Shown here: one piece after another, positions 1 through 5,022 of the stretch
Numbering within the stretch: position 1 is the first letter of the stretch
Layout of the letters: each line of letters starts with the position of its first letter
From: a virus
Lineage: Duplodnaviria > Heunggongvirae > Uroviricota > Caudoviricetes
DNA length: 5,976 nt
IMG/VR virus record: IMGVR_UViG_2703718823_000007
Location: 1 to 5,976 of that record
Direction: 5' to 3' (one strand)
The notes under the pieces: model-generated
Seen by the model: the letters and a program-made list of their open reading frames with translations, nothing else
Told to the model about the DNA's origin: nothing
The model's database searches: none
Program-made: the position numbers and the translations under genes

Positions 1-2320
1 GCATTTCCGCCATCTCGTCCTTCAGCTTGCTGTTGTCAATCTCTGCCCACAACGCCTCTGCCAGATGTGTTTTTCCTATCTTTTCCCGGAAAAACTCCAG
101 ATAGCCCGCAGCATCATCACTGGCCCGTCCACTGGCTTCAACAAACGCGGATTTACCCACCAGATTGACGCTGCGCACGTAAAACCAGAAAACTTTCCCG
201 GGTTTAATCTGGCTGCCGGAGACGCTCCACTGGCTGCCTGTCCCCAGATAACGGGCAGAGGTTTCCACCTGTGCGGCGTCTGCAATTTTTGCCTCCGAAA
301 ACCAGAACTCAAACTGCACCGTCGGGTCATACACCGCAAGACGCGGTACCGCCGTTATCTGAAAATACCCCGGCGTCAGTTCAACACCGGCAGGCGCTGC
401 CGGTGCGTTAATCCGGAACGTGGTGGTGGCGGGTTCGCCCTGCTGGCCATAGCTGTTAATCGCCCTGACCGTCAGGGTGTATTCCCCGAGAGGCAGGCCA
501 CTGAAACGGTGCTCCGTATCGGCAGTGATGGCGGTGGTCAGCAGGCGGCTGTTCTCACCGCTTCCACTGGTCAGGCGCAGACTGAAGCGCACGCCCTTCA
601 CCACCCTCGGCGTGTCCCATTTCGCCAGCGCCAGATACTGGCTGTCAGCTGCGCTAACCTCCACCGTGAGGTGCTGTACTGCCGGTGGGATAACGCTGTT
701 CAGGGTGCCTGACTGCGGCTCAAAGCGGGCTCCGTTATCCACAATGGCTTCTTTTTCCGGTACGTGCTGCACCGCCGTGATGGCAAAGGTGCCGTCCGTG
801 TTTTCCCGGATGGAGACACAGCGGAACAGGCGACGGCGCAGTGACGGCAGGGAGAGTCCCCACACCCCGTATGTCTCCACGCCATCCGGCAAGGGGCTGA
901 CCTGTATCCGGTCCGGCGCGGGGTGTGCGGTGATGTCCACACTCACCGGCTTACCGCTGCCGTTAATCAGGTTCACCGTCAATGTACCTGTCCCCGGAAG
1001 TGTCACTTCACGGTCCAGCGTCAGGGTGCGGGTGGCAGCATCAATGGACAGGACACGTCCGCCGGTCAGGGTCCCGGCATAGTCATTATCACAGATTTCA
1101 ATAATGTCACCGGGTGTGTGCCGCAGCCCCTGTGACCCGAGTGTGAAATCCACCGTCTGCGTTTCCAGCAGTTCTGTCTTTATCACCCACAGCCCGGCAC
1201 GGAAGGTGTACGGCCACACCACATCCGACGGGCGGTCCTGAACGAACGTCAGCGTCTGGCCGTTCCATACCGGCATACAGCGCATCGCCGAGCAGAAATC
1301 ACTGAGAACGTCCCACACCTTACGCTGTTGTGCCAGGTACGCATTAAAGGTCATCCGCGGCTCTGTGCCCCCGAAACCATCCGGGACCGTCTGGTCGCAG
1401 TACTGCCCGATGGCATACAGCGCCCACTTGTCCACATCCGCCGCCCCCAGACGTTTTCCCATGCCGTAGCGCGGGTGAGTCAGCATGTCCCACAGACACC
1501 AGGCCGGGTTGTTGCTGTATGCCGGTTTCAGACTGCCGTCCCAGATACCACTGTACGTGCGTTTTTCCGGGTCATAGTTTGACGGCACCTGGATGATGCG
1601 ACCGCGGATATGGTAGTTCACCGTCATCTGCTGGCCGCCGAACTGCTCCGCATCCACCTGCAGCCCCACAATGGCCGTGTTCGGGTAGCACTGTTTTACA
1701 TCGATGATTTCGGTGTATGACGACCAGAGCGTCTTATTCTGCAGCTGGTCCGTGGTGCTGTCCGCCGTCTCCCTGACCATCCGGATGTTAAAGGGGCGGG
1801 GAGGCAGATTATCCAGAATCACCGAGGCCAGGAACTGTGAGGTGGTCTTGCCGTTAATGGTGACATCCTTTTCTGTCACCCAGTTACCGTTACGCTGTAA
1901 CTGAATCAGCAGACGGACAGAGGACGGATTACGGTCACCCTTTGACGTGGTCTCCACCAGTGACTGCACCCCGAAGGTCACCCGCAGGCGGTCAATGTTC
2001 GCTGACGTAATGGTGCGTGTCACCGGTTTTGCCTTCGTCACTTCCACACCCAGTACAGTTTCAGCTCCGGAGGACTCAAAGCCTTCCGGTGGTGTCTGCT
2101 CCTGCTCCCCGGCGCGCCAGACCGCGGTCACACCGTGTATCACGGGATTACCGTCCGTGTCCGTCAGCGGGGTTTTGTTCACCAGAATACTCTGCAGGCC
2201 TTTCACCGGACCTTCAATGGGTCCCTCACCAATCGCATCAATCACGCTCATCATCTGCGTGGATTTGAGATTATCCTTCGCCTCACGAGGCGTGTGTGCC
2301 TTACCGCCACCTTTTCCCAT
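1..2320 (-). CDS. J: Tail tip / host specificity protein J (central tail fibre), N-terminal 773 codons; partial, the 3' end including the receptor-binding C-terminus lies beyond the left edge of the window
   Basis: Hand translation of the minus strand from ATG at 2320..2318 gives [38 protein letters not shown]... and stays open with no stop down to position 1 (last residues ...[19 protein letters not shown]). Long blocks match my recollection of lambda gpJ (e.g. [118 protein letters not shown]). GGGGAAGG Shine-Dalgarno-like sequence 5 nt upstream of the ATG. Absent from the ORF track only because it has no stop codon in the window. Confidence 0.9.
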
Positions 2321-2662: not shown

Positions 2663-3343
2663 TTATCCCTGTCGACCAATAACCACCACCTTTCCGTCTC
2701 CGCCTTCATCACGGGTGCTGATGTCCTGAGAGATACGTCGTGAACCAACCAGCATTTCACCGTAGGGCACCGGCATCGGGTTGCCCTGGGCAATCATGTT
2801 GTCCAGTGAGGAAAAATACGTGTTCTGTCTGCCGTTATCCGTTGCGCGGTAATCCGGTGTTTTTGCCTTCGGGGCCAGCATCTGGGCCACACCGCCCAGT
2901 ATCATGCTGGCACCCAGTGAAAACAGCATCGTGGTGGCAGAAAAACCACCGGCTGCCAGGGCTGAACCCCATAACGCCATTGATGCCCCGGCAGTGAAGA
3001 AAGAGCCCACGATGGCTGCCGCCCCCAGCACAATCTGCAGTCCACCCTTTCCGGCCCCGGCCAGTCGCGGCACAATATGGATGACCGTTCCCTCACCCAG
3101 CTGTTCGTGAAGACGGGCGTACACCGCCTCCGGTGCCGTGTCATAACCGGCAATACGTATCTGGTACCAGCCTTCGTTCATCTGAAGGCGAAAGCCCGGC
3201 ATCTGCATCGACAGGGCGCGAATGGCTTCCGCTGCCGTGTTCACATACAGGCTGAGGCGGCGGCCAAATCGTTGTAAATCCCCGTGAAGGCAGATGCGGA
3301 CCAGTGGCGGTGACGCCAGACAGAATGCGTTCGTCGTTGCCAT
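2663..3343 (-). CDS. I: Tail assembly protein I (ubiquitin-like beta-grasp N-terminal domain, Gly/Ala-rich hydrophobic C-terminal half), 226 aa
   Basis: ATG at 3343..3341, stop TAA at 2665..2663. The translation MATTNAFCLASPPLVRICLHGDLQRFGRRL...SLDNMIAQGN...VVVIGRQG matches recalled lambda gpI along its length. The 5' end overlaps the 3' end of K by 103 nt in another frame, as in lambda. Confidence 0.9.
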   Translation of the reverse strand: MATTNAFCLASPPLVRICLHGDLQRFGRRLSLYVNTAAEAIRALSMQMPGFRLQMNEGWYQIRIAGYDTAPEAVYARLHEQLGEGTVIHIVPRLAGAGKGGLQIVLGAAAIVGSFFTAGASMALWGSALAAGGFSATTMLFSLGASMILGGVAQMLAPKAKTPDYRATDNGRQNTYFSSLDNMIAQGNPMPVPYGEMLVGSRRISQDISTRDEGGDGKVVVIGRQG

Positions 3344-3984
3344 TTTTCGGAATAACTCTCCCGTTTACTCAGTTGTTCAGGAATATGGTGAAGCAGTTCA
3401 CCGTTGCCGCAGTAAATGGCGGCATGATTAGCCACCGATGCGCCGAAGCAGCACAGCAGGATATCGCCCGGCAGTGCAGAGGACAGGGGCACCCGGTAAA
3501 AGCCCGTTGCCTCCATATTGTCCAGGTAAAGGTTCTGACCGTTGCACCACCAGTCATCCTCACGGTGAAAATCCGGCATATCAATGCCTGCCAGATGGTA
3601 TGCATCCCGGAACAGCGTGTAACAGTCCGTCACCCCGTGCGCAAAGCGCCGTCCTGTCAGATGTGGCACACAGCGGAATTTGTGAATGTCACCCCGGCAG
3701 ACCAGCCACCAGGGCAGTGCGCTTTTTATCTGCAGCCGCCGGTCAGCCTCGCTCAGCCAGGGCAGCCCACCGGGATGACTGTGGACCAGTGCCACAATCT
3801 CCCCCGACATCTCTGCCCGCAGCCAGTCTTCCGGTGCGATACGAAAATACGCCTCAGGCTCTGCAGAGATATTCACGCACGGCTGGTACTGGTTGCCCTC
3901 CGGCGTGCTTATCACGAAGCCGCACGACTCCGCAGGCGCACACCGCCGGGCATGCGCCAGAATCGCTGATTCAGTCTGTGTCAT
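3241..3984 (-). CDS. K: Tail assembly protein K (JAB/MPN metallopeptidase-like domain plus NlpC/P60-like domain), 247 aa with the start chosen at 3984
   Basis: Translation MTQTESAILAHARRC...HSHPGGLPWLSEAD...GVTDCYTLFRDAYH...LLHHIPEQLSKRESY... matches recalled lambda gpK. The ORF-track entry 3241..4245 extends upstream into L from a non-ATG start; I place the start at ATG 3984..3982, 10 nt after the L stop. It has no obvious Shine-Dalgarno sequence, so the exact start is uncertain (an internal ATG at 3810..3808 is the alternative). Confidence 0.85.
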   Translation of the reverse strand: MTQTESAILAHARRCAPAESCGFVISTPEGNQYQPCVNISAEPEAYFRIAPEDWLRAEMSGEIVALVHSHPGGLPWLSEADRRLQIKSALPWWLVCRGDIHKFRCVPHLTGRRFAHGVTDCYTLFRDAYHLAGIDMPDFHREDDWWCNGQNLYLDNMEATGFYRVPLSSALPGDILLCCFGASVANHAAIYCGNGELLHHIPEQLSKRESYSEKWQRRTHSVWRHRHWSASAFTGIYNDLAAASACM

Positions 3985-3994
3985 AAACCGGGAT

Positions 3995-4693
3995 TTACTG
4001 CGAAAGTTTATTAATGGAAAGGAAACCGCCAAAATTGCCGACATTCCTGCGCAGTTCACACCCGCGCATGCACTTGCTGCATCTGTCCTTACGGATATCC
4101 GTGGTGGGTTTATCGAACTCATCCGCCACAGCCCCGCCCGTGTAACCACACTCATCAGAGCGGTAGGTCCACATACAGGTGTTCGCCAGCATGATGCGAC
4201 CGGGAAACAGCGCCCCGTCCGTCTCGGTCGGTGTGGCCAGCACAAACGAGGCCGTCATGGCCGTCAGCTCTGACATCTGCTCCACCACCCAGCGGTCACT
4301 CAGCTCCTGCTCCGGGTCCGCTTCCGGATTGCCCGCAACGAAATTCACCGCATCCAGAAAACGGGCATACACCCGGCGGCGGACCACCGTGGCCCCCACC
4401 AGACTCTGCAGGTCTTCCGCCATCCCGGTGACAAGGCCAAACAGATTGGACACCGTCAGCAACGGTCTGGCACTGCTGCCCTTTCCGTTCATCTCAAAGC
4501 CGCTGCCCTCAATCGGGTATGCCTCATACTTACGCCCCTGCCAGGTGACCGGCTCCCCTTTTTCATTCAGCTCATTACAGAAAAAATACCGCTCACCGCC
4601 CTGTACCGTCAGGTCGATTTCCCAGAGTACCACCCGCGGTGACTGCTCTGATTTAACCGACTCGTTCAGACTTTCTTCGTGAATATCCTGCAT
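3995..4693 (-). CDS. L: Minor tail protein L (tail tip complex), 232 aa
   Basis: ATG at 4693..4691 with AGGTGG Shine-Dalgarno-like sequence upstream, stop TAA at 3997..3995. Translation MQDIHEESLNESVKSEQSPRVVLWEIDLTVQGGERYFFCNE... with a Cys-rich C-terminus, consistent with lambda gpL. Confidence 0.92.
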   Translation of the reverse strand: MQDIHEESLNESVKSEQSPRVVLWEIDLTVQGGERYFFCNELNEKGEPVTWQGRKYEAYPIEGSGFEMNGKGSSARPLLTVSNLFGLVTGMAEDLQSLVGATVVRRRVYARFLDAVNFVAGNPEADPEQELSDRWVVEQMSELTAMTASFVLATPTETDGALFPGRIMLANTCMWTYRSDECGYTGGAVADEFDKPTTDIRKDRCSKCMRGCELRRNVGNFGGFLSINKLSQ

Positions 4694-5022
4694 CAGTTCA
4701 CCACCTGCTTAAACTCCGCGCTGAACTCAACGCGCAACATCCCGACCCGCGCAGACCACCCGGCACAGGTCACCTTTATCTGCCGGTATGCATAGGGTGG
4801 CTTCCACAAAAATGCCTTCCAGCCACCGTGCTCTGCCAGGAACGCTTCCAGATGCCGGGCCTCCTCCCGGGTCACGGAAAGCATCACCCGGTATGTTTTC
4901 AGGTCAGCATTCAGCCCTGCCGCCATACGCTGTGAGTACCCGTCACCAAAACGCACTTCACGCACCGATGGCTGCGAGTTCACCTCCATATCCGGTTTCA
5001 CTTTCCAGCGAAAGGTTTTCAT
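4693..5022 (-). CDS. M: Minor tail protein M, 109 aa
   Basis: ATG at 5022..5020 with GGGAG 7-8 nt upstream. Translation MKTFRWKVKPDMEVNSQPSVREVRFGDGYSQR...FLWKPPYAYRQIKVTCAGWSARVGMLRVEFSAEFKQVVN is near-identical in pattern to recalled lambda gpM. Its stop TGA overlaps the L start (TGATG). Confidence 0.92.
   Translation of the reverse strand: MKTFRWKVKPDMEVNSQPSVREVRFGDGYSQRMAAGLNADLKTYRVMLSVTREEARHLEAFLAEHGGWKAFLWKPPYAYRQIKVTCAGWSARVGMLRVEFSAEFKQVVN

Follow-up and report, generated by a model that had tools for sequence, protein, structure and literature searches.

A lambda-like K–I tail-tip gene pair with intact JAMM and NlpC/P60 motifs and a ubiquitin-like domain in a likely Escherichia coli prophage

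The closest described system to the gene pair considered here is gpK/gpI (TAPK/TAPI) of phage lambda. In 2006, Iyer, Burroughs and Aravind predicted a cleavage of TAPI at the C-terminal glycine of its ubiquitin-like domain, with the JAB domain of K as the protease (PMC1779556); this is the published K–I proposal that the original prediction for the present DNA had invoked, and it exists as cited. According to a 2025 conference report, Davidson's group showed both biochemically and genetically that lambda gpK cleaves gpI, the cut being made only once I has joined the tip complex; the report consists of a few sentences, which give neither data nor a cleavage site (PMC12908700). gpK went undetected in lambda virions by mass spectrometry and by cryo-EM (PMC10721106, PMC12617516). 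The visible part of gpI starts at residue 101, or at 134/135 (PMC10721106, PMC11101478, PMC12617516), with residues 134/135–223 resolved in virions (PMC10721106, PMC12617516). Papers on the tail tips of F-pyocin, LSH1 and Avs-1 give no information about I cleavage.

Parts of this arrangement recur in other systems. The archaeal PfJAMM1–SAMP2 and HvJAMM1 systems resemble it in that a minimal JAMM protease (E...HxH...S..D) acts on a beta-grasp protein of the MoaD/ThiS kind that bears a Gly tail at its C-terminus. They differ in that I carries its ubiquitin-like domain as a translational fusion to the 'target', the reaction being the processing of a linear precursor rather than the reversal of an isopeptide bond; in that the K–I system comes without E1/E2 genes and has its protease fused to an NlpC/P60 domain; and in that the tail of I is Gly-Ala/Ser, not Gly-Gly, in most family members. 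The E. coli enzyme MepS/Spr (NlpC/P60, C40) has the papain-like fold and the order Cys...His...His in common with K, whereas K has no secretion signal recognisable by inspection, is cytoplasmic in tail assembly and is not found in virions. In phage T5, the plug domain of pb3 sits at the same place in the tip as the C-terminus of I and, like it, serves as a plug below the tape measure; both also have hydrophobic segments for which entry into the outer membrane has been proposed (PMC10721106); the T5 plug, however, is an insertion in one large hub protein, without a ubiquitin-like prodomain or a K-like partner.

On the minus strand of the DNA analysed here, a stretch of 5,976 nt (the window), lies a lambdoid tail-tip operon in the order H-M-L-K-I-J, the same as in lambda. 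The C-terminal part of H is followed by M (4693..5022; 109 aa), a distal tail protein by Pfam (PF05939, E 8.4e-38), and L (3995..4693; 232 aa), a Phage_tail_L protein (PF05100, E 3.9e-92). Next come K (3241..3984; ATG 3984, TGA 3243..3241), which encodes a tail-tip assembly protein of 247 aa with two peptidase domains, and I (2663..3343; ATG 3343, stop TAA 2665..2663), which encodes a tail-tip assembly/insertion protein of 226 aa. The 5' part of J, the central tail fibre gene (1..2320), starts at ATG 2320 and leaves the window after 773 open codons; the best-matching phages have it annotated as J. The pair had been assigned to positions 3041–3984; these coordinates are right, but the span stops inside I, and the pair really occupies 2663–3984.

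Both proteins follow their lambda counterparts closely. K is approximately 85% identical to the corrected 246-aa K of lambda/DE3 and I approximately 66% identical to gpI; domains and motif residues are the same, and two glycines of I, G100 and G101, have identical residue numbers. In the lambda reference record K is annotated with only 199 aa, because that record lacks one G, whereas the 247-aa K of the window is correctly annotated. K is also 85–95% identical to proteins annotated as 'tail tip assembly protein K / C40 family peptidase'. The locus differs from lambda in the spacer between I and J, which is AT-rich and measures 342 nt as against 60 nt in lambda; the remaining differences are ordinary sequence divergence. 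The anti-sRNAs AgvB/AsxR were ruled out as the spacer element, since they lie at the PR' moron site and are 51–60 nt long (PMC4104026), and are therefore a different element. Rfam, applied to the entire window at E <= 1, returned just two chance C/D-box matches, both within J.

As in lambda, where the overlap is about 100 nt, the 3' end of K and the 5' end of I overlap, here by 103 nt (3241..3343), I lying in the −1 frame of K. Within the overlap the I-frame synonymous divergence is 0.17, whereas it is approximately 1.27 over the remainder of the ubiquitin-like domain and 1.25 over the C-terminal part. Because of this frame relationship, a programmed −1 frameshift giving a K–I fusion was conceivable in principle; no canonical X_XXY_YYZ slippery site occurs anywhere in K, and the idea was therefore dropped.

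K and I serve a lambda-like siphophage as its tail-tip assembly proteins, and this phage is most likely an E. coli prophage. Many lambdoid prophages are defective, and a pair residing in a decaying cryptic prophage, non-functional even though its motifs look intact, has to be weighed, the more so as related tail modules occur in 4122 of 5426 complete E. coli genomes (median 2, maximum 15 places per genome) and just 6 kb of the element is in view. The sequence itself argues against decay. All frames in the window are open, namely those of M, L, K and I, of the C-terminal part of H and of J over its first 773 codons; a stop in H hinted at by the open-reading-frame listing was rejected, the H frame being open up to the end of the window. 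Compared with lambda/DE3, K shows a dN/dS of 0.12 and I one of 0.25, so that both genes are under purifying selection. The region is, moreover, 92–97% identical to inducible or plaque-forming phages, among them ASU11, the PhiR series and Stx-converting phages. We therefore consider decay improbable, and the earlier judgement that the pair is 'probably functional' is borne out by the open frames and the dN/dS values.

The N-terminal half of K carries a JAB/MPN+ (JAMM) metalloprotease domain (residues 3–105; 3670..3978, minus strand), identified by Pfam, Foldseek and alignments. Against PF14464 (Prok-JAB) it scores 58.1 bits (curated cut-off 25; E 9.6e-16), residues 3–105 covering positions 3–113 of the 114-position profile. 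The motif HSHPGGLPWLSEAD at 3783..3742 on the minus strand, which the original prediction had singled out as a JAMM signature, fits the pattern H-x-H-x7-S-x2-D and supplies H68, H70, S78 and D81; the upstream catalytic Glu is E19 in PAESCG (3930..3928). A six-frame search of the window finds this pattern a single time, while mononucleotide shuffles average 0.03 matches. The five residues align with the same residues of PfJAMM1 and of 2kks. In the predicted structure of K (mean pLDDT 77) the N-terminal domain reaches about 90, and its best Foldseek matches are PfJAMM1 entries 5ld9/5lda, with and without SAMP2 (E 1e-5, target TM-score 0.64–0.65, rmsd 2.7–2.9), followed later in the list by Rpn11 and CSN5. 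The model thus points to an MPN fold for this half of K. NCBIfam gave only sub-threshold matches for K, to the desampylase model (30 bits, cut-off 130) and to TIGR02219 (21.8, cut-off 81.9); a desampylase score so far under the equivalog cut-off means that K is not a desampylase orthologue.

Conservation of the catalytic residues had been named as one way to check the motifs, and it supports them. E19, H68, H70, S78 and D81 of the JAB domain, together with C121, H187 and H199 of the NlpC/P60 domain, are invariant in 20 enteric K homologues. An IMG/VR scan with the K alignment yielded close relatives only (91–97% identical), and diverse sequences were obtained instead by tblastn against GenBank phages, with rows spread across the matches, and by a search of representatives at 50% identity. 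Among 13 further phages (HK97-like, T1-like, Burkholderia, Pseudomonas, Moraxella, Acinetobacter, Stenotrophomonas and Dhillonvirus), the catalytic residues are kept in 12, as read by eye from the alignment; the exception is the truncated 199-aa lambda K entry, which is without E19. K lies directly upstream of I in every annotated one of these phages, and in the diverse-phage alignment the full JAMM set is kept wherever I carries the ubiquitin-like domain. Apparent K–I and L–K 'fusions', mostly clusters of one or two sequences, were treated as frameshift or assembly artefacts.

The partner protein I starts with a ubiquitin-like beta-grasp domain (residues about 12–97; 3053..3310, minus strand), delimited by AlphaFold2, Foldseek and conservation. 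Residues 16–97 match PF06805 (Lambda_tail_I) over positions 4–83 of 83 with 60 bits (cut-off 23.8; E 3.2e-16), while NCBIfam gave no match for I. The AlphaFold2 model has a pLDDT of about 70–75 over residues 12–95 and low confidence elsewhere, with strands at 14–19, 30–33, 60–64 and 87–92. When residues 12–95 were searched with Foldseek, nearly all of the top 50 matches were of the ubiquitin type, led by MoaD, SAMP1, Urm1 and CysO, with ThiS, ubiquitin, NEDD8 and SUMO at lower ranks. The best matches have probabilities of 0.9–1.0 and target TM-scores of 0.60–0.71, with marginal E values (2e-3 and weaker), and it is the uniformity of the list that makes the case for a predicted MoaD/SAMP/Urm1/ubiquitin-like beta-grasp. 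The structural comparisons thus pair the two proteins with the two sides of the archaeal system, PfJAMM1 being the best match of the N-terminal domain of K and SAMP1, MoaD and Urm1 those of I. The ubiquitin-like region that had been read from the N-terminal sequence of I is therefore recovered by both Pfam and Foldseek, just as profile searches find JAB and NlpC/P60 in K. The I family comprises 3207 clusters at 50% identity (E <= 0.001). Sequences in which I appeared joined to a methylase, a terminase, a capsid protein, a tail-tube protein or the C-terminus of J proved by Pfam to be chimeric assemblies and not real architectures.

The end of this domain differs from what had been proposed. The original prediction had the ubiquitin-like region end in Gly-Gly, and the codons of G100-G101 are indeed present at 3041..3046 within VIHIVPRLAGAGKGG; they form part, however, of a variable linker that leads from the ubiquitin-like domain to the first of the hydrophobic helices. 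Among 74 diverse I proteins, 28 retain G100 and 66 retain G101, the linker varies in length, and 47 have a Gly-Gly somewhere within it. The conserved end is the motif P92-x3-G96-[A/S/G]97, found in 67 of the 74, with P92 in all 74, G96 in 72 and A, S or G at position 97 in 69. In the I of the window this reads P92-R-L-A-G96-A97 (G96-A97 codons 3058..3053), four to five residues past the last strand; the fold ends at P92 in the model and the Pfam domain at residue 97. To judge from the alignment, then, the ubiquitin-like domain has a conserved C-terminal glycine and no conserved diglycine. Ubiquitin itself ends in H68-LVLRLRG-G76, and H89-IVPRLAG-A97 of I is in register with this tail residue by residue. 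We infer, as the best reading of these positions, that the predicted JAB cut in I falls between G96 and G101, likeliest right after G96-A97. With a cut after G96-A97, the JAB domain of K would accept Ala or Ser at P1.

What follows the linker had been described as a Gly/Ala-rich hydrophobic tail. Its composition was described correctly, but the roughly 125 residues after the Gly-Gly correspond, by alignment to lambda gpI, to a pair of predicted membrane helices and the C-terminal domain found in the virion tail tip. The Gly/Ala-rich hydrophobic segment proper, defined by alignment to lambda gpI, spans residues 102–157 (2873..3040, minus strand) and corresponds to the helices H1 and H2 of gpI, both predicted to be membrane helices (PMC11101478); the model of I has a helix at 107–130 with low confidence. 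Residues 158–226 (2666..2872, minus strand) form the C-terminal structural domain by homology to virion-resolved gpI, where they correspond to the plug and beta-strands in the lumen of the lambda tail tip, and are the most conserved part of the family. Over residues 1–224, I matches gpI chain 8iyk_I with E 1e-93; the solved gpI chains 8iyl/8k35/8xcg are matched with E 1e-93 as well, and a 90-residue modelled gpI fragment, 9e7m, with E 8e-38. By its homology to the virion-resident part and its position between K and J, I matches a gpI-type tail hub insertion protein.

Taken together with the work on lambda, these features suggest how the pair may operate. I would be made as a precursor in which a ubiquitin-like head (~12–97) is followed by a short linker rich in Gly, a pair of hydrophobic helices and a C-terminal domain. 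This last part would be structural and, as in lambda, would insert in trimeric form into the tip that J and L build, plugging the lumen beneath the tape-measure protein. K would be a non-structural enzyme whose N-terminal JAMM zinc-metalloprotease recognises the ubiquitin-like domain of I and severs this head at its C-terminal Gly-containing tail, by the same chemistry as deubiquitinases and desampylases. Cleavage could then serve as an assembly checkpoint, leaving only the membrane-active and plug part of I in the virion. By analogy with lambda, for which the literature supplies three points, namely that gpK cleaves gpI, that virions lack K and where the C-terminal part of I is located, I is very probably such a precursor, from which K JAB removes the ubiquitin-like head as an assembly checkpoint, and this locus presumably behaves in the same way.

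The ubiquitin-like domain could instead stay in place, full-length I being present in the virion with a flexible, invisible N-terminus, and the JAB domain of K having another substrate or acting as a chaperone of I. The cryo-EM work does term the N-terminal domain of gpI 'unresolved', not absent, and assumes it to be present (PMC11101478), and mass spectrometry of lambda virions gave a single gpI peptide (9.87% coverage), whose position is unstated. Retention would, however, leave three 11-kDa domains without density in three independent reconstructions, and it conflicts with the cleavage reported to have been shown biochemically and genetically (PMC12908700). The co-occurrence of the JAMM set with the ubiquitin-like domain described above speaks against it too, as does the conservation of the G96-[A/S/G]97 tail, as in the substrates of such enzymes. 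We regard retention as very unlikely and continue with removal of the head by K.

The C-terminal half of K is an NlpC/P60 (C40) papain-like domain (residues 111–224; 3313..3654, minus strand), identified by Pfam, Foldseek and conservation, with 49.2 bits against PF00877 NLPC_P60 (curated cut-off 23; E 5.6e-13) over residues 111–224 and the full profile (1–105 of 105). The Cys codon at 3622..3624, already picked out from the sequence, encodes C121 in GVTDCYTLF, which opens helix 121–131 of the model. C121 would form the putative triad with H187 (3426..3424) and H199 (3390..3388), two His residues 12 positions apart, as suggested by the profile match and the family pattern; all three are kept in 14 diverse K proteins in an alignment read by eye. 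The model of this domain is less confident (pLDDT 50–90), and its Foldseek matches (E 3e-5 to 2e-3) are MepS 8xup (3e-5), Spr 2k1g, Acd33800 9ubf, 7v6s-u and CwlO 23tz, which points to a papain-like alpha+beta fold.

In another reading, K would chiefly be a cell-wall hydrolase carried by the virion, with an NlpC/P60 domain that cuts peptidoglycan at DNA injection and a JAB motif that is incidental. In its favour, enzymes of the NlpC/P60 type typically act on peptidoglycan as endopeptidases, MepS, CwlO and Acd33800 are the best structural matches, TIGR02219 (a weak match, below cut-off) is a 'putative phage cell wall peptidase', and lambda's own peptidoglycan enzyme is still unidentified (PMC11101478). 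We regard this reading as very unlikely: neither mass spectrometry of lambda virions nor any cryo-EM map has revealed gpK (PMC10721106, PMC12617516), its F-pyocin counterpart is likewise not resolved, the JAB residues are as strictly conserved as those of NlpC/P60, and peptidoglycan is out of reach for a cytoplasmic assembly factor. Since K is absent from virions, cytoplasmic and strictly conserved in Cys-His-His, its NlpC/P60 domain may be a second protein-processing peptidase of tail assembly and not a cell-wall hydrolase. One candidate substrate may be the tape-measure protein, as the cleavage of gpH to gpH* falls in a Gly-rich region and has no known protease (PMC12617516). The combination of a JAB cut after G96-A97 with an NlpC/P60 domain serving as the second assembly peptidase of K is a doubtful proposition when both parts are taken together.

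The K–I pair was already known, and its occurrence here is confirmed; the window itself adds nothing new, being one more intact copy of a module found in most E. coli genomes. The pair is of wider interest as a clear viral case of a ubiquitin-like domain and a JAMM protease serving as an assembly checkpoint, and it bears on the pre-eukaryotic origin of deubiquitinase-type chemistry. For annotation, K should be given 247 aa, not 199 aa, and I should start at the upstream ATG, which brings in the first beta-grasp strands. The conserved C-terminus of the ubiquitin-like domain is best marked at G96-A97, not at the Gly-Gly four residues on.

All long reading frames of the window lie on the minus strand and make up the lambda tail-tip operon. 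By reading frame and Pfam these are M (4693-5022), L (3995-4693), K (3241-3984) and I (2663-3343), and by reading frame the C-terminal part of the tape-measure gene H, whose frame stays open between the window end and 5019, and J, which starts at ATG 2320 and continues off the left end. H, M, L, K, I and J are likewise annotated in the records of the closest phages, the E. coli lambdoid ASU11, the PhiR series and Stx-converting phages, which are 92-97% identical to the window; 4122 of 5426 complete E. coli genomes carry sequence related to it. The original prediction placed the K/I pair at 3041-3984, coordinates that hold except that the end point falls inside I; as a functional unit the pair spans 2663-3984. 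The adjacency of K and I is not absolute, since in Vibrio phage Her (L094, 1-2585) about 1.7 kb, including two opposite-strand genes (anti-repressor-like and hypothetical), lies between a K-like peptidase gene and I.

Both peptidase domains proposed for K were recovered in profile searches, well over the curated cut-offs: Pfam Prok-JAB at residues 3-105 (E 9.6e-16) and NLPC_P60 at residues 111-224 (E 5.6e-13). The JAMM motif HSHPGGLPWLSEAD is encoded at 3783..3742 and the NlpC/P60 cysteine at 3624..3622; every position originally assigned proved correct on checking. The pattern H-x-H-x7-S-x2-D matches once in the six frames of the window, compared with a mean of 0.03 in shuffled sequence, and the upstream catalytic glutamate, absent from the earlier account, is present as E19 in PAESCG. 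An AlphaFold2 model of K built with 20 homologues has a mean pLDDT of 77, rising above 90 in the N-terminal domain. Its Foldseek matches in the PDB form two groups, the first comprising Pyrococcus JAMM1, both alone and together with SAMP2, its ubiquitin-like substrate, then Rpn11 and CSN5, and the second MepS/Spr, Acd33800 and CwlO. In HMMER alignments, E19, H68, H70, S78 and D81 sit on equivalent residues of JAMM1 and the MPN protein 2kks.

The motif residues were also conserved as expected: E19, H68, H70, S78, D81, C121, H187 and H199 do not vary among 20 enteric homologues (66-93% identity). Read off the alignment, the same eight persist in 12 of 13 additional phages (HK97-like mEp043; T1-like IME-JL8, BUCT-XGG-1, vB_Kpn_F13, KL3; Bcep176, PP9W2, Mcat7, Acba_18, ANB28, EP23 and PMBT14), the sole exception being the truncated 199-aa lambda entry. 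The dN/dS of K against lambda/DE3 is 0.12. The lambda reference (J02459/NC_001416) lacks one G, at GAGGC-TATTTCC (L003, the lambda locus, 1125-1330 = lambda 14124-14329 = window 3780-3995), which is present in DE3, HK629/630 and independently re-sequenced lambda records (207 versus 206 nt). Putting this G back extends lambda K to 246 aa and completes its JAB domain, catalytic Glu included; the usual 199-aa annotation begins partway through that domain.

The ubiquitin-like region claimed for I was borne out by Pfam Lambda_tail_I over residues 16-97. In the structural model, residues 12-95 alone are confident (pLDDT about 70-75); strands occupy 14-19, 30-33, 60-64 and 87-92, and confidence is lost from residue 96 on. 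Its Foldseek matches are almost all of the ubiquitin-type beta-grasp (MoaD, SAMP1, Urm1, CysO, ThiS, ubiquitin, NEDD8, SUMO), the best having probabilities of 0.9-1.0 and target TM-scores of about 0.6-0.7, yet E-values of just 2e-3 and weaker. Full-length I matches lambda gpI chains from solved structures of the virion tail tip (E 1e-93). The start of I differs between records (window 3244-3343; comparison loci L001 3277-3858 and L098 1600-2172), with an upstream ATG giving 226 or 223 aa and a GTG giving 190-193 aa. The GTG, used in PhiR5_1 (193 aa) and ev243 (190 aa), overlaps the K stop. The upstream ATG 3343 is the correct start, because the first beta-grasp strands lie upstream of the alternative GTG 3244 and are contained solely in the long I (the Pfam match begins at residue 16, and a model strand spans 14-19). 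From this start, I shares 103 nt with K, and within the shared stretch the I frame shows reduced synonymous divergence, as expected for dual coding.

One feature of I required correction. The ubiquitin-like region had been taken to end in Gly-Gly (codons 3046..3041), but G100-G101 sits in a variable linker. I homologues give 3207 matches at E <= 0.001 in a 50%-identity representative library, from which 74 full-length proteins were aligned. P92 and G107 are kept in all 74, at a distance of 15-24 residues, and G96 in 72; position 97 is A, S or G in 69, position 98 is G or K in 65, G101 is kept in 66 and G100 in only 28. G96 is followed by A, S or G in 67/74, and GG occurs at any place in the linker in 47/74. 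Judged from these counts and the varying linker length, the ubiquitin-like domain has P-x3-G-[A/S/G] as its conserved C-terminus, which is also the end point of the Pfam domain. The I sequence H89-I-V-P-R-L-A-G-A97 aligns in residue-for-residue register with the C-terminal H68-L-V-L-R-L-R-G-G76 of ubiquitin. G100-G101 is numbered identically in lambda gpI, a protein described as visible from residue 101 onward in the closed tail tip (PMC11101478). A cut after G101 is hard to reconcile with this, whereas any cut between 96 and 100 fits; we infer that cleavage would fall there.

Two irregularities were seen among I sequences. In Klebsiella phage KL3 (L088, 2061-2818) a frame change, which is a sequencing error or else a genuine frameshift, splits I exactly at the junction of ubiquitin-like domain and linker (…IRIIPVP / …GSKNAGLFQIVLG), and the record annotates just the 124-aa C-terminal part plus a spurious opposite-strand ORF. 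Five library entries (P0244, P0247, P0286, P0287, P0326) join I fragments to a DNA methylase, terminase large subunit, major capsid protein, tail tube protein or the J C-terminus; such joins are most likely products of chimeric assembly between prophages and not real domain architectures.

The published proposal invoked for the pair is that of Iyer, Burroughs and Aravind (2006, PMC1779556), who recognised a ubiquitin-like domain in TAPI and the combination of JAB with NlpC/P60 in TAPK, and proposed that the JAB cuts at the C-terminal-most glycine of the ubiquitin-like domain, releasing it. By cryo-EM and mass spectrometry, the C-terminal part of lambda gpI forms a trimeric plug beneath the tape measure (PMC10721106, PMC11101478, PMC12617516), and gpK was not found in virions (PMC10721106, PMC12617516). 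Cleavage of gpI by gpK was stated to be shown for lambda in a talk by Alan Davidson at the 2025 Conference on Bacteriophages (meeting report PMC12908700); our literature search found no full paper or preprint with these data. The best explanation is the one already known, namely that I would be a precursor whose ubiquitin-like prodomain is taken off during tip assembly by the JAMM domain of K, a non-structural protein, and that the hydrophobic helices and plug domain of I would stay in the tail. The copy in the window looks functional, as originally supposed, because the frames are open, the catalytic residues intact and the genes under purifying selection. The original finding was right and its interpretation sound, and what it describes was known before.

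The I-J spacer (2321-2662) is 342 nt long, compared with 60 nt in lambda, and has 43% G+C versus 58% for the window. Its plus strand, which runs antisense to the tail operon, has a promoter close to the sigma-70 consensus (TTCACA-16-TATAAT, 2526-2553) as well as an intrinsic terminator (2633-2649, then a T-run, T7); the two together suggest a candidate small RNA of about 100 nt. The candidate had no Rfam match, and its identification as AgvB or AsxR was rejected. Of 27 comparison loci that carry the spacer at close to full length, the best match it at 99.4-99.7% identity, and in these it is more conserved than the flanking genes; in a 240-nt class, promoter and terminator are conserved and the middle is divergent. 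Across the comparison loci (L001-L003, L004-L083) the junction falls into discrete length classes of about 60, 240, 342 and 800-1600 nt, which suggests a moron insertion point. A strong minus-strand hairpin, CCCCGGTATC-TGCT-GATACCGGGG, with runs of A and T on its flanks, lies at about 2419-2455 in the same orientation as the tail operon. Situated some 100 nt before J begins, it resembles a terminator within the late operon, through which an antiterminated late transcript would be expected to pass.
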